A DNA stretch of 64,000 nucleotides, from positions 193,753 through 257,752 of the forward strand of contig CBDBQC010000002.1 of assembly GCA_965209205.1 (NCBI GenBank), given 5' to 3'. Of the stretch, positions 9,532 to 26,582 are shown in pieces. Numbering within the stretch: position 1 is the stretch's first letter; each line of letters opens with the position of its first letter. The notes beneath the pieces were generated by a model, which did no database searches, had not been told where the DNA came from, and saw only the letters and a program-made list of their open reading frames with translations. The position numbers were made by a program, and so were the translations under genes. This DNA comes from Dehalococcoidia bacterium (GTDB taxonomy: Bacteria; Chloroflexota; Dehalococcoidia; Bin125).

Positions 9532-10461
9532 CTAGCGGATGTTGCGCAGGCGCGGATCGAAGGCGTCCCGCACGCCGTCGCCGACGAAGTTGAACGACAT
9601 CACGAGCAGGATGATGGCCGCGCCCGGCGCGACGATCGGCCAGAACGAGAAGAAGATCTCCTGGTACCCCGTGGCCACCATGCCGCCCCAGGCGGGCGTG
9701 GGCGGCTGCACTCCCGCGCCGATGAAGCTGAGCCCGGCTTCGACCAGGATGATGCCGGCGGCCGAGAGCGAGGCCAGCACCATGATCGGCGCGACGACGT
9801 TGGGCAGCAGGTGGCGCGCCATGATCCGGGCCGGGGTCGCGCCGATCGCGCGGGCGGCGTCGATATAGACCTCTTGCTTGAGGGAAAGGACGAGGCTGCG
9901 GGTGAGCCGGGCGTAGCCGGGCGACCAGACGAACCCGACGATGATCATCGTGTTCGTGATGCTGGGCCCGAGCGCCGCCGTGATGGCGAGGATGAGGACC
10001 AGACCGGGCATCGCCATAAGGGCATCGACGATCCGCATGATCACGAGCTCGTCCAGCTTGCCGCCTACGTACCCGGCGATGAGCCCCAGCGGGACACCGA
10101 TCCCGATGGCGACAGCGAGCGCGGCGAGCACCACCTGCCAGGCGATGCGGGCGCCGAAGATCGTGCGGCTGAGCTGGTCACGGCCCAGCGTGTCGGTGCC
10201 GGCGATGCGGTCCCAACTCGGAGCGCCGAGGAGGTTGTCGTAATCGGGGGCCAGGGGATCAGACGGCGCGATCAGCGGCGCGAACGCCGCCACGATGCCG
10301 AAGCCGAGCAGCAGCAGCGCCCCCACCACCGCGGGCCGGTTGCGCGCGTACACGCGCGCAATCCCGCGCACCTGCGCGATCCGGGGATGGTCGCGCAGGC
10401 GTGCCTGCCCGAACGCGGGCAGCCGGGCGTCAACGCCGGCGGGCGCCGATGTCTTGCGCAC
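9532..10461 (-). CDS. ABC transporter permease, Opp/Dpp/Nik C-type
   Basis: ORF 9532..10479 trimmed to GTG 10461, with GAGGGGGG upstream, 1 nt after the stop of the B-type permease. Paralogue of 41643..42578. Confidence 0.9.
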   Translation of the reverse strand: MRKTSAPAGVDARLPAFGQARLRDHPRIAQVRGIARVYARNRPAVVGALLLLGFGIVAAFAPLIAPSDPLAPDYDNLLGAPSWDRIAGTDTLGRDQLSRTIFGARIAWQVVLAALAVAIGIGVPLGLIAGYVGGKLDELVIMRIVDALMAMPGLVLILAITAALGPSITNTMIIVGFVWSPGYARLTRSLVLSLKQEVYIDAARAIGATPARIMARHLLPNVVAPIMVLASLSAAGIILVEAGLSFIGAGVQPPTPAWGGMVATGYQEIFFSFWPIVAPGAAIILLVMSFNFVGDGVRDAFDPRLRNIR

Positions 10462-23294: not shown

Positions 23295-24382
23295 TTACGG
23301 CAGGATGATACTCCGCGCGACCTCGCCCGAGAGCATGTCCTCGAAGGCCTCGTTGATCTCGTCGAGCGGCCGGAAGCGCGAGTACAACTCGTCCAGCTTC
23401 AGCCGCCCCTGCTGGTACAACTCGATGAACCAGGGGAAGTCGACCCGCGGGCTGGCGCTGCCGGACGAGGAGCCGATCAACCGCCGGTCGAGGAACAGCG
23501 GCACCATCGGGATCGACACCTCGCCGCCGGTCGGCGGCACGCCCACGGCGCAGGCCGTGCCGCCCGGCCGCGTCGCCTCGAATGCCTGGCGGACGGTCGG
23601 CGCCCTGCCGATCACCTCGAAGGCGTACTCCACGCCGCCGCCGGTCAACTCCCGCACCGCCTCCACGGGGTCGACCTCCGAGGCGTTGATCGTGTCCGTC
23701 GCCCCGAACTGCGTCGCGAACTCCAGCTTGCGAGGCACCAGGTCGATCGCGATGATCCGGCTCGCCCCGGCGATCACGGCCCCCTGCACCACGTTCAGCC
23801 CCACGCCGCCGCAGCCCCAGACCGCCACCGTCGCCCCGCGCGCACTTGGGCGGTCCGCACCACCGCCCCCACCCCCGTCGTCACCGCGCAGCCCAGCGAC
23901 GCCAGACGCTCGATGGGCACCGTGTCCGTCACTTTGACGAGTTCCCACTCCGGAACGACCGTGTACTGCGAGAAGGTCGACGCCCCGTGCTGCAACGGCT
24001 CGCCGTCGAGCGTGTGAAAGCGAGTCTTGCCGTCCATCCGCCGCCCCGGCGGCGCGGTGATGCCGTTGCAGAGGTTGGGGCGACCGCTGCTGCAGTACTC
24101 GCACCAGCCGCACATCGGCCGGATCGCGAACACCACGTGGTCGCCGGGCTCGAACCCGCTCACGCCCGGCCCCAGCTCCTCCACGACCCCCGCTCCCTCG
24201 TGGCCCATCACAAAGGACCCCGGCACCGCGAGGTGCCCGTCCACGGCGTGATAGTCGCTGTGGCAGGCGCCCGTCGCCGCGACGCGGACCAGCAGCTCGC
24301 GGTGGTGCGGCGGGTCGAGCTCCACCTCCTCCACACGGATCGGTTCGTGCGCGGCGTAGAAGATCGCGGACTTGGTGCGCAT
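23295..24382 (-). pseudogene. zinc-dependent alcohol dehydrogenase (MDR), disrupted by a 1-nt frameshift
   Basis: The N-terminal part lies in ORF 23795..24694 (from ATG 24382, GGGAGGA upstream) and the C-terminal part in ORF 23295..24113. The frames switch within gtgcgcgcggggcgacggtgg (about 23835-23850). Adding one G to the GGGG run restores ..VRAGATVAVWGCGGVGL.., matching the intact paralogues. The length of 1088 nt is one short of a multiple of 3. Confidence 0.8.
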
Positions 24383-24406
24383 GGCTTTCCTCCCGGTTGC
24401 GGGCGG

Positions 24407-24413
24407 CAGGCTA
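24407..24413 (-). promoter_or_regulatory. TAGCCTG motif, 24 nt upstream of the ADH start
   Basis: caggcta on the + strand; same orientation as the downstream gene. Confidence 0.25.
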
Positions 24414-24563
24414 CCCGACGCCGGGGACGGGCCGCAAACACCGGGCGGTGGGGCGACGGGCGCCGCCGCCGACCCGTGGGCTAGACTCGACCGGCCGGCG
24501 CCCGCGTCCCGGATCGGGCCCGGCCGGCGCGCCGTCATCACGGACGGCGCATGGGAGGCCGAT

Positions 24564-25652
24564 GTGCGGATCACGAACGTCACGGTGGAGATCGCGAACT
24601 GGACGGTCGAGCCCTGGCAGATTGGCGCCGGCAGGTTCTTGGGCGGGAACGAGCAACTCGGCGTCGTCACAGTCTCGACCGACGAGGGGATCAACGGGCA
24701 CGCCTTCCTCAGCCGGCCCCAGCACCACGCGAGCGGCCTGATCGCCTACGCCAAGCCCACGGTCATGGGCCGTGACCCCCAGGACATCGGCGCGATCTGG
24801 CGCGACCTCTGGAAGCTGGAGCACTCGCTTCACACCTACGCCATGGGCGCCATCGACATCTGCCTGTGGGACATCAACGGCAAGATCGCCGGCCAGCCCA
24901 TCCACCGCCTGCTGGGCACCTGCAAGGAGTCGGCGCCGGTCTACTCCAGCACGGCCTACTGGGAGACCCCCGAGGAGTACGCGGAGGAGGCGCTGCGCTT
25001 CCGCGACGCCGGCTGGACCGCCCACAAGATCCACCCCCACACCGAGCCGCGCGCCGATGTCGAGATCTGCCGCGCCGTGCGGGAGGCCGTCGGCGACGAC
25101 ATGATCCTCATGCTCGACTCGATGTGGGCCTACCAGTACGAGGACGCGCTGCGCGTCGGCCGCGCCATCGAGGAGCTGGACTTCTACTGGTACGAGGATC
25201 CGCTCGTCGCGCAGGACATCTACAACTACGTCAAGCTGCATCAGAAGCTCGACATCCCCATCATGTCCACCGAGGCCGCCCCCGGCGGCTTCTACGGCAT
25301 GGCGCAGTGGATCACGCAGCAGGCCACCGACTACCTGCGCGGCGACGTCGCGGTGACCGGCGGCATCACGCCCACCGTGCGGCTCTGCCACCTGGCCGAG
25401 GGCTTCAACATGAAGTGCGAGATCCACCACGGCGGCAACTCGCTCAACAACGTCGCCAACCTGCACGTCACGATGGCCGTGCCCAACTGCGAGTTCTTCG
25501 AGTTCTTCCCCAGCACCGGCGACATGCAGTACGGCCTCGTCGAGGAGATCGACATGACCGGCGGCGTCGTGCACGCCCCCACCGAGCCCGGCCTCGGCTA
25601 CGCGATCGACTGGGACCGGATCCGGCGCGAGCACGTCGCGACCCTCGAGTAG
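24564..25652 (+). CDS. enolase superfamily enzyme (mandelate racemase / muconate lactonizing family)
   Basis: ORF 24372..25652 trimmed to GTG 24564 (GGGAGG 5 nt upstream). Contains AIDICLWDINGK, an LMLDSMW..YWYEDP metal-ligand pattern, and a TIM-barrel C-terminal half. Confidence 0.85.
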   Translation: MRITNVTVEIANWTVEPWQIGAGRFLGGNEQLGVVTVSTDEGINGHAFLSRPQHHASGLIAYAKPTVMGRDPQDIGAIWRDLWKLEHSLHTYAMGAIDICLWDINGKIAGQPIHRLLGTCKESAPVYSSTAYWETPEEYAEEALRFRDAGWTAHKIHPHTEPRADVEICRAVREAVGDDMILMLDSMWAYQYEDALRVGRAIEELDFYWYEDPLVAQDIYNYVKLHQKLDIPIMSTEAAPGGFYGMAQWITQQATDYLRGDVAVTGGITPTVRLCHLAEGFNMKCEIHHGGNSLNNVANLHVTMAVPNCEFFEFFPSTGDMQYGLVEEIDMTGGVVHAPTEPGLGYAIDWDRIRREHVATLE

Positions 25653-25693
25653 CCGGCGGCCTCTGCGCCGCGGCCTGGAGAGTGCAGCGACCC

Positions 25694-26077
25694 ATGATCT
25701 CGACCGAAGACCGGCTCGCGATCCTCGATCTCTGCGCGCGCTACAACTACGCGATCGATACCGGCGCCTCGGAGGCCTGGGCCGGCACGTTCACGGCCGA
25801 CGGCGTCTTCGACGGCCCCGCCGGCCACGCCGAAGGCCGCGACGCGCTCGTCGCCTTCTGCGATCAGCTCGCCAAGGACTTCCCCGGCGCGATGCACTTC
25901 ACCGACAACCACCTCTTCGAGCGGGCCGGCGACGGCGTCCGCCACCGCTGCTTCCTCAGCTTCCAGGTCCCCGTCGAGGGCCGGACCGACATCTGGCTCC
26001 TGGCCTACGAGGACGACCTCGTCAGCGTGGACGGCGAGTGGCGCTTTCGCAGTCGCCGGGTCGCGCCGCTGCGCTAG
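25694..26077 (+). CDS. SnoaL-like / NTF2-fold protein
   Basis: C-terminal 127 codons of ORF 24866..26077 from ATG 25694 (MISTEDRLAILDLCARYNYAIDTG...). Typical SnoaL_4-type N-terminus. Confidence 0.7.
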   Translation: MISTEDRLAILDLCARYNYAIDTGASEAWAGTFTADGVFDGPAGHAEGRDALVAFCDQLAKDFPGAMHFTDNHLFERAGDGVRHRCFLSFQVPVEGRTDIWLLAYEDDLVSVDGEWRFRSRRVAPLR

Positions 26078-26111
26078 CATGCGGGTCGGATCCCCGGGAA
26101 GGGAGCGCGGC

Positions 26112-26582
26112 ATGGCGGACGACGGCTTCACCTACGTCAGCAAGAACCGATTGATCTTCAAGGGCGGCCTGCGACACGCCTACCTGGGTGACGTTGCCGA
26201 GCCGGTGCCGTATGGCGTGCAGGGCGCGCTGCGCGAGTACTACGGCGTCGGCGAGGGCCCGCCCATCGCCGCGACGCTGGATCACATCGTGGCCGCGGTC
26301 GGCGGTTGAATGTACGGCACTTTCGCGCGTGCGCTGAGCGCCCGCAAGGTCGAGTTCGACCGATCCAGCTTCACCGCCGACGTCGAGGGGACCATCGAGG
26401 GGACGGGCAACGACACCATCCGCATCACCAGGATCCACGTCACCTACCACGCGTCGATCCCAGGCGAGCAGCGGGAGGCGTTCGATCGCGCGTTGCGCAT
26501 GCACCCGGCGGCCTGCCCCGCGCACGAGAGCGTGAAGGCCGCGATCGACATCACGTGCTCGGCGGAGGTGGCGGAGCGCTAG
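26112..26582 (+). CDS. OsmC/Ohr-family peroxiredoxin-like protein with an in-frame TGA (26307-26309) at the first conserved Cys: selenocysteine candidate or Cys-to-stop pseudogene
   Basis: ORFs 26079..26309 and 26310..26582 are the same frame split by one TGA. ATG 26112 has AAGGGAG upstream. The joined product is ~156 codons with ..IVAAVGG[TGA]MYGTFA.. and ..HPAACPAHESV.. . Confidence 0.6.

Follow-up and report, generated by a model that had tools for sequence, protein, structure and literature searches.

A conserved in-frame TGA at the peroxidatic cysteine position marks a widespread, mis-annotated OsmC-like selenoprotein candidate in Dehalococcoidia

In the DNA of a member of the Dehalococcoidia (Chloroflexota), which is 71% GC, we find a gene for an OsmC-like protein in which a single in-frame UGA codon (26307-26309) is very probably decoded as selenocysteine (Sec66); we put the probability of this reading at about 0.9. 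On sequence grounds, every in silico criterion in use in the field identifies it as a real selenoprotein candidate. The window, by which we mean the whole 64,000-nt stretch of DNA that was analyzed, carries on its forward strand one reading frame that runs from ATG 26112 to a TAG at 26580-26582 over 156 codons, the sole interruption being the TGA at codon 66. The gene and its main features are as follows.

26112..26582, + strand: complete gene of the candidate OsmC-like selenoprotein, 156 codons plus TAG, putative Sec at codon 66 (PF02566 match and model of a homologue)
26099..26105, + strand: Shine-Dalgarno-like AAGGGAG, 6 nt before ATG 26112, read directly from the sequence
26280..26282, + strand: GAT, Asp57 of TLD, the acidic residue 9 before Sec (conserved in at least 90% of sequences; OsmC Glu50 in the profile alignment)
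26304..26306, + strand: GGT, Gly65, a rare codon apparently held under selection (GGU in 59/74 unique family sequences)
26307..26309, + strand: in-frame TGA, putative Sec66 codon at the peroxidatic-Cys position (TGA in 81/81 orthologues; alignment with Cys59)
26514..26516, + strand: TGC, Cys135, putative resolving Cys in HPAACPAHESV(K) (invariant in alignments; aligns with OsmC Cys125)

A preliminary description of this DNA had joined ORFs 26079-26309 and 26310-26582 into one frame split by a single TGA, placed the start of a product of ~156 codons at ATG 26112 behind AAGGGAG, and given the context of the TGA as LDHIVAAVGG[TGA]MYGTFARAL. Our rereading of the window bears out all of this: the two ORFs lie in the same frame and are parted only by TGA 26307-26309, codon 66 is surrounded by ...TLDHIVAAVGG-[TGA]-MYGTFARALSARKVEFD..., the joined product has 156 residues, and the N-termini of homologues, MADDFEYIS... 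(MADDFEYISRARL...), support ATG 26112 as the start. When the TGA was translated as Cys, residues 57-149 of the product matched the Pfam OsmC domain model PF02566 with 49.4 bits (gathering score 27.5; E=6.6e-13).

To collect relatives, we searched 5.8 billion proteins and obtained 114 homologues of the window protein, most of which are half-genes broken at the TGA codon. Approximately 47 cover the C-terminal part (86-95 residues), and those inspected start with MYGT; approximately 60 are N-terminal pieces, and those inspected finish with ...AAVAG or AAVGG. For comparison at the DNA level, we used the best 80 of 124 confirmed species-representative genomes (GTDB representatives), nearly all of them Dehalococcoidia/Chloroflexota MAGs, with sponge symbionts, soil samples, and long-read complete chromosomes among them. 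The codon 66 column is TGA in 81 of the 81 genes, one from the window and the others from 80 species-level genomes, at protein identities as low as 56%, and TAA, TAG, Cys, or any other sense codon stands in this column in none of these orthologous genes. Whether orthologues carry TGA or TGC had been named in the preliminary description as a check on its reading, and close and distant relatives alike have TGA. L001-L004, which share synteny with the window and are 88-91% identical to it in nucleotide sequence, keep the TGA, and a relative with only 37% GC also has TGA at the Sec column. The coding sequence on both sides of the TGA (...TLDHIVAAVGG / MYGTLARAL...) is conserved under strong purifying selection. 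The retention of TGA in 81/81 genes is far beyond chance.

These comparisons bear on the explanation that a TGC or TGT codon became TGA and inactivated an ordinary Cys-type OsmC gene, making the gene a pseudogene, or that the TGA is a sequencing or assembly error. Damage of this kind is not foreign to the region, as at least one neighboring gene is disrupted by being split over two frames:

23295-24694, - strand: split Zn-dependent alcohol dehydrogenase gene, with ADH_N in ORF 23795-24694 and ADH_zinc_N in ORF 23295-24113

The frameshift in this gene is either that of a pseudogene or an assembly error, and one relative of the OsmC-like gene likewise has CGA at the TGA column in a frameshifted copy. 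Against inactivation or error stand the recurrence of the same TGA in 81/81 independent genomes between flanks under strong purifying selection, the cluster of C-terminal-half products with its 21 member sequences, and the conservation of the SECIS-like hairpin described below. Orthologue identities of 56-92% exclude copies of a single contaminating sequence. We regard this explanation as extremely improbable.

Sequences that show another residue at the column are few. Where database proteins have W there (P0003, P0016, and P0143), the TGA was translated under the wrong code, and these gene calls also read past the real stop. One close relative, P0002, which is located on a 598-nt contig, is a true Cys form (TGT); only one close Cys revertant of the Sec form was seen. 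P0024, with Arg (CGA) at the column, was considered as a natural non-Sec variant and rejected because the same copy is frameshifted, making it a probable assembly error or pseudogene.

Some copies of the gene have irregularities elsewhere. In L075 (OZ252215.1, ~9992-10000) the gene is otherwise intact but has an additional in-frame TGA, located two codons before the Sec codon (...AAV-TGA-GGG-TGA-ATG...), which could encode another Sec (U-G-U) or result from an error or a recent inactivation. In the N-terminal half of L055 an extra in-frame stop is found where relatives have Gln (...VVYAV*GELK...), and in L065 the first ~25 residues are exchanged for unrelated sequence; these two may be decaying copies or assembly errors. 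Some Sec-form fragments (P0033, P0057, and L077) are deposited under the names Vicinamibacterales, Methyloceanibacter sp., and Clostridia bacterium, the cause being either horizontal transfer or contamination of the bins.

With the Cys form as seed, an exhaustive HMMER search yielded full-length relatives at 30-52% identity. The Sec column is Cys in at least 90% of 31 full-length distant relatives, the non-Cys exceptions among full-length relatives being one more TGA form and one frameshifted sequence, and the second Cys (the Cys135 column) is invariant in family alignments. The preliminary description had placed the TGA on the column of Cys59 of E. coli OsmC and the retained Cys of HPAACPAHESV on that of Cys125. 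Pairwise phmmer comparisons with PDB sequences are ambiguous on the first point and give contradictory registers for the Cys column, one of them offset by 4 residues. A profile built from the 31 relatives, by contrast, aligned '...vaalagC ltgT...' to '...gaahaaC59 fsma...' of E. coli OsmC (E=2e-4) and '...argCPvhrS...' to '...kaGC125Pvsq...', and T. thermophilus OsmC and Ta0195 gave the same Cys registers as E. coli OsmC (profile, E ~2e-6). The family profile alignment therefore confirms both assignments and keeps the TGA on the catalytic Cys column, which was also a check named at the outset. The same alignment sets Asp57, conserved in at least 90% of sequences, against Glu50 of OsmC; an invariant catalytic Arg was not found in the N-terminal strands in the alignment of full-length relatives. 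The active-site signature of the family can be written as TLD...AVGG-U-MYGT...R, R...H-x3-CPAHESVK.

The AlphaFold model of the Cys-form homologue P0002, which is 60% identical to the window protein, has a pLDDT of 95.9. In this model residue 65 is located in a long helix (54-76) and residue 133 at a kink between helices 116-132 and 134-139. A Foldseek search of PDB with the model returned OsmC/Ohr-type or uncharacterized OsmC-like proteins for all of the top 50 hits, with probability 1.00 and TM values up to 0.84. As judged from the model of its homologue, the window product is an OsmC/Ohr-fold protein.

The model and the family alignments also address the idea of a split gene, in which translation would stop at the UGA and restart at the adjacent AUG, so that chains of 65 and 90 residues build the OsmC fold. 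AUG directly follows UGA in 73 of 74 unique sequences, and gene callers start the 90-aa product at that AUG. The break, however, would fall inside the long central helix (model residues 54-76) and lose exactly the catalytic residue, and the residue that follows Cys is Met in close Cys forms and Leu in distant ones, marking the Met as a family residue and not a start signal; in L056 and L092 the codon after UGA is CUG. Moreover, a split gene predicts neither a hairpin at SECIS distance nor the exclusive use of TGA over TAA and TAG. A split gene is thus highly improbable.

Under the selenocysteine reading, a bacterial SECIS element is expected shortly downstream of the UGA, and the minimum free energy (MFE) fold of the window has a hairpin at this place.

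26315..26352, + strand: SECIS-like hairpin, MFE structure, -14.8 kcal/mol, core 26325-26345
26315-18/26349-52, 26320-22/26346-48, and 26325-27/26343-45, + strand: helices of the hairpin in the MFE fold
26329-32/26338-41, + strand: upper stem, 4 bp, with a C.C mismatch (26328/26342) below it
26333..26337, + strand: apical loop GCUGA, G first, starting 23 nt after the UGA

A GC-rich hairpin at SECIS distance had been proposed in the preliminary description with its apical loop at 26331-26337; the hairpin exists, but its loop is 26333-26337. [quoted passage not shown] Its stability is nevertheless no better than chance (z=-0.23 against dinucleotide shuffles and z=+0.36 against synonymous resampling with genome codon usage); the peptide ARALSAR, encoded at 71% GC, is enough to give a hairpin. 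The hairpin, in which the C.C mismatch is present, also fails a strict 7-bp stem test, and a scan of the window against Rfam at the gathering threshold gave no match. By itself the window hairpin is not significant, as the preliminary description had cautioned.

We, therefore, turned to the family. RNAalifold applied to the in-frame stack of all 74 sequences found almost no structure because the pairing register of the hairpin differs between clades, and we instead called hairpins sequence by sequence, compared them with a synonymous-codon null, and counted pairs within each register. An uninterrupted stem of 7-9 bp is present in 68 of the 74 unique sequences, with at least six different stem sequences, and the hairpin loop starts +23 to +29 nt after the U of the UGA in ~67 of the 74. 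A stem of at least 7 bp with a loop at +21 to +30 was found in 64/71 unique sequences compared with 13.2 expected from synonymous resampling, whereas the same criterion applied to two control segments of the gene gave 5/80 and 1/78. Likewise, the mean MFE z is -1.57 for the segment after the UGA compared with -0.47 and -0.17 for the control segments. Under a strict no-bulge stem test, 62/74 sequences fall within all four bSECIS constraints.

Compensatory double changes occur inside fixed pairing registers (e.g., G-C x8 / A-U x8). In the register-82 subset (n=17), 98.3% of cells are paired compared with 85.6% in shuffles (0/500), a percentage that is inflated because the subset was chosen for that register; this choice does not inflate the double changes, and 3/7 pairs have changed on both sides (18 cells, 0/500). 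Sliding the register-82 pairing by 1-3 columns leaves only 9-77% paired. Stems of the five divergent Cys forms are 5 bp or less and lie at scattered positions, and a recent Cys convert (one sequence) retains a 7-bp hairpin. In the TGA form of the 37% GC organism, a less stable hairpin occupies this position and has a CUUGA loop, as does one GC-rich clade. The search for conserved downstream structure, another check named in the preliminary description, thus gave a hairpin that is enriched over the synonymous null and covaries across the family.

The codon immediately 5' of the UGA is GGU in 59 of the 74 unique family sequences, although GGT makes up only 4.5% of the window's Gly codons and 10.6% of those across loci; this suggests that the base 5' of the UGA is under selection, through its codon context or its pairing within a lower helix. 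A 9-mer that contains the UGA (CGGUUGAAU, 26303-26311) is complementary at 8 or more of its 9 positions to GUUCGACCG (~26353-26361, E-F-D codons). This complementarity with a site ~40 nt downstream is found, as a raw count, in 51 of the 74 sequences, and clades with ...IEIAPED... are without it. If CGGUUGAAU and GUUCGACCG pair, the hairpin would be enclosed by a lower helix of the kind seen in E. coli fdhF.

A further explanation is that the UGA is read without selenium as Cys, Trp, or Gly, either by a suppressor or near-cognate tRNA or through reassignment of the codon. TGA terminates 80 of the 131 long ORFs in the window, where it is the commonest stop, and also terminates 30 of the same 81 genes; this ordinary use as a stop excludes a genome-wide reassignment of UGA. 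Trp is the residue given by some pipelines (P0003, P0016, and P0143), but their calls ran through the real stop too. Read-through by a standard tRNA requires no hairpin at a fixed distance, and a TGA restricted to the redox Cys column is the signature of Sec used in the field (PMC13188914). On the other side, neither the window, which is 64 kb of a contig of at least 451 kb, nor the flanks of relatives showed Sec machinery: ARAGORN found no tRNA-Sec in the window and 60 loci, and tblastn with E. coli SelA, SelB, and SelD as queries found none of the three in the window or the relatives' flanks, which total 1.6 Mb. As these sequences are a small fraction of each genome, both results are uninformative. 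A paper on Cys-tRNA in Chloroflexi (PMC5424206) contains nothing relevant to a UGA-to-Cys route. Taking both sides together, we consider decoding without selenium very improbable. In BSepDB, Dehalococcoidia MAGs have 46-49 selenoproteins and are among the richest known (PMC13326102). We also searched the window for other selenoprotein genes, based on in-frame TGA codons with high GC3 on both sides, and obtained only antisense frames and ordinary gene ends.

If the UGA encodes selenocysteine, the locus would be a single intact gene whose product of 156 residues is a thiol (here selenol) peroxidase with the OsmC/Ohr fold. Based on the established bacterial pathway, SelB with GTP and Sec-tRNA(Sec) would bind the hairpin ~23 nt downstream, and Sec would be delivered when the UGA enters the A site, with release factor 2 being outcompeted. 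By the mechanism of OsmC and Ohr, the Sec66 selenolate would attack the hydroperoxide to give a selenenic acid, which Cys135 would resolve to an intramolecular selenenylsulfide, and a dithiol reductant of the lipoyl or thioredoxin type would re-reduce the latter. We infer the peroxidase activity, the substrate, and the reductant from OsmC/Ohr enzymology, and by this analogy a peroxidase function appears somewhat more probable than another role.

OsmC-like selenoproteins were described in 2005 from the Sargasso Sea based on three sequences of COG1765 (YhfA type) with the motif UxxT (Zhang, Fomenko & Gladyshev, PMC1088965), and reviews of 2022 and 2026 still give this type as the sole OsmC-like selenoprotein family. 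The preliminary description is therefore correct in tracing Sec-containing OsmC-like proteins to metagenomic surveys (PMC1088965), but the published family is a different subfamily. The Sargasso selenoprotein (PMC1088965 supplement) matches the NCBIfam model NF041052, "OsmC-related (seleno)protein," with 157.4 bits (cutoff 95). It and the window protein both belong to the OsmC superfamily, have Sec at a homologous column that starts a long helix, and keep the second Cys; U/C and the second Cys align column for column (BLASTP, hhalign), and both genes have a SECIS-type hairpin inside the coding region. They differ in that the window protein is only 22% identical to the Sargasso protein over 100 residues, has 156 residues compared with 137, and has the motif U-M-Y-G-T in its family compared with U-L-L-T. 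In addition, the window family is GC-rich and centered on Dehalococcoidia, whereas the Sargasso sequences are AT-rich and marine. The window protein scores below the curated cutoffs of NF041052 (24.5 bits, cutoff 95) and TIGR03562 (28.4 bits, cutoff 85.8), and none of the 31 relatives matched TIGR03562, TIGR03561, or NF041052 at any curated cutoff.

OsmC of E. coli and T. thermophilus (1qwi, 1nye, and 1ukk), which are two-Cys organic hydroperoxide peroxidases, have the same fold (probability 1.00, TM 0.6-0.7), and both Cys columns and the acidic residue (Asp57 vs. Glu50) align with those of the window protein. The putative Sec takes the place of Cys59 of the E. coli protein, to which sequence similarity is marginal, and the window family has conserved residues of its own (in P0002 numbering, R77, R124, H129 of H-x3-C-P, and S138). 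Ohr (6eb4, 1n2f, and 1zb9) shares the fold and the two-Cys architecture with the window family; however, the Ohr model TIGR03561 weakly matched only 3/31 relatives, and the catalytic Arg of Ohr was not identified in the window family. The putative OsmC-like protein Ta0195 from Thermoplasma acidophilum (2onf) is both the best structural match (TMt 0.84, rmsd 2.6 Å) and the best sequence-profile match (E=1.8e-6) and aligns at both Cys columns, but it is a Cys protein of 15% identity whose function is not established. By sequence comparison, the window protein falls in the same superfamily as the known OsmC-like selenoprotein and outside the NF041052, OsmC proper, and Ohr subfamilies. We tentatively suggest, at slightly less than even odds, that it represents a second selenoprotein subfamily of the OsmC superfamily, evolutionarily apart from the described one, Sec-fixed in more than 80 Dehalococcoidia species, and escaped from annotation.

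The gene is preceded by a gene of the MR/MLE enolase superfamily and a SnoaL_4 gene and is followed on the other strand by genes for an FGGY kinase and Zn-dependent alcohol dehydrogenases (Zn-ADHs).

25691-26077, + strand: SnoaL_4 gene, just upstream, missing in L001
26601-28100, - strand: FGGY-family (glycerol-kinase-like) gene, missing at that place in the syntenic L001-L004
28136-29345 and 29378-30605, - strand: two tandem Zn-ADH paralogues, with ~87% identity to each other's counterparts in relatives

Directly around the candidate selenoprotein gene, the flanks vary even among close relatives. Across the loci we found no conserved operon partner and only clade-specific synteny. In ~40 loci (the L013-L054 clade) a class I/II aminotransferase-like ORF is encoded upstream on the same strand with a median gap of 26 nt and a RibD_C-like ORF downstream, an arrangement that is absent from the window and may be a clade-specific operon. 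A RibD_C gene is also located beside the Cys form in L090, and a SnoaL_2 gene adjoins a distant Cys form (L087).

Public records that bear a name list the C-terminal half as a 90-aa "OsmC family protein" and label the N-terminal one "hypothetical protein"; among the 114 database homologues, a Sec-annotated full-length version was not found. Gene callers emit these two products because an AUG directly follows the UGA. The gene has, therefore, been deposited as two fragments in at least 124 species-level genomes (the best 80 of which were checked) and on many metagenome contigs, and it is consequently missed by selenoproteome counts for Dehalococcoidia, including sponge symbionts and soil lineages. 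No curated model rescues the gene, and a subfamily HMM with a Sec-aware rule would do so.

Proteins of this kind, with Sec at this position and decoded in this way, have been described before, and no new class of biology is involved; what is new here is a widespread and systematically mis-annotated subfamily of a known selenoprotein kind with Sec at the same catalytic position. It offers a compact system of 156 residues for comparing Sec with Cys in the OsmC/Ohr mechanism. Virtually all orthologues have kept the Sec form, which is an argument that selenium brings a real catalytic benefit at the peroxidatic position of OsmC. Should the Sec of this subfamily and that of the COG1765-type family have independent origins, the peroxidatic Cys of OsmC would be a recurrent site of Cys-to-Sec conversion.
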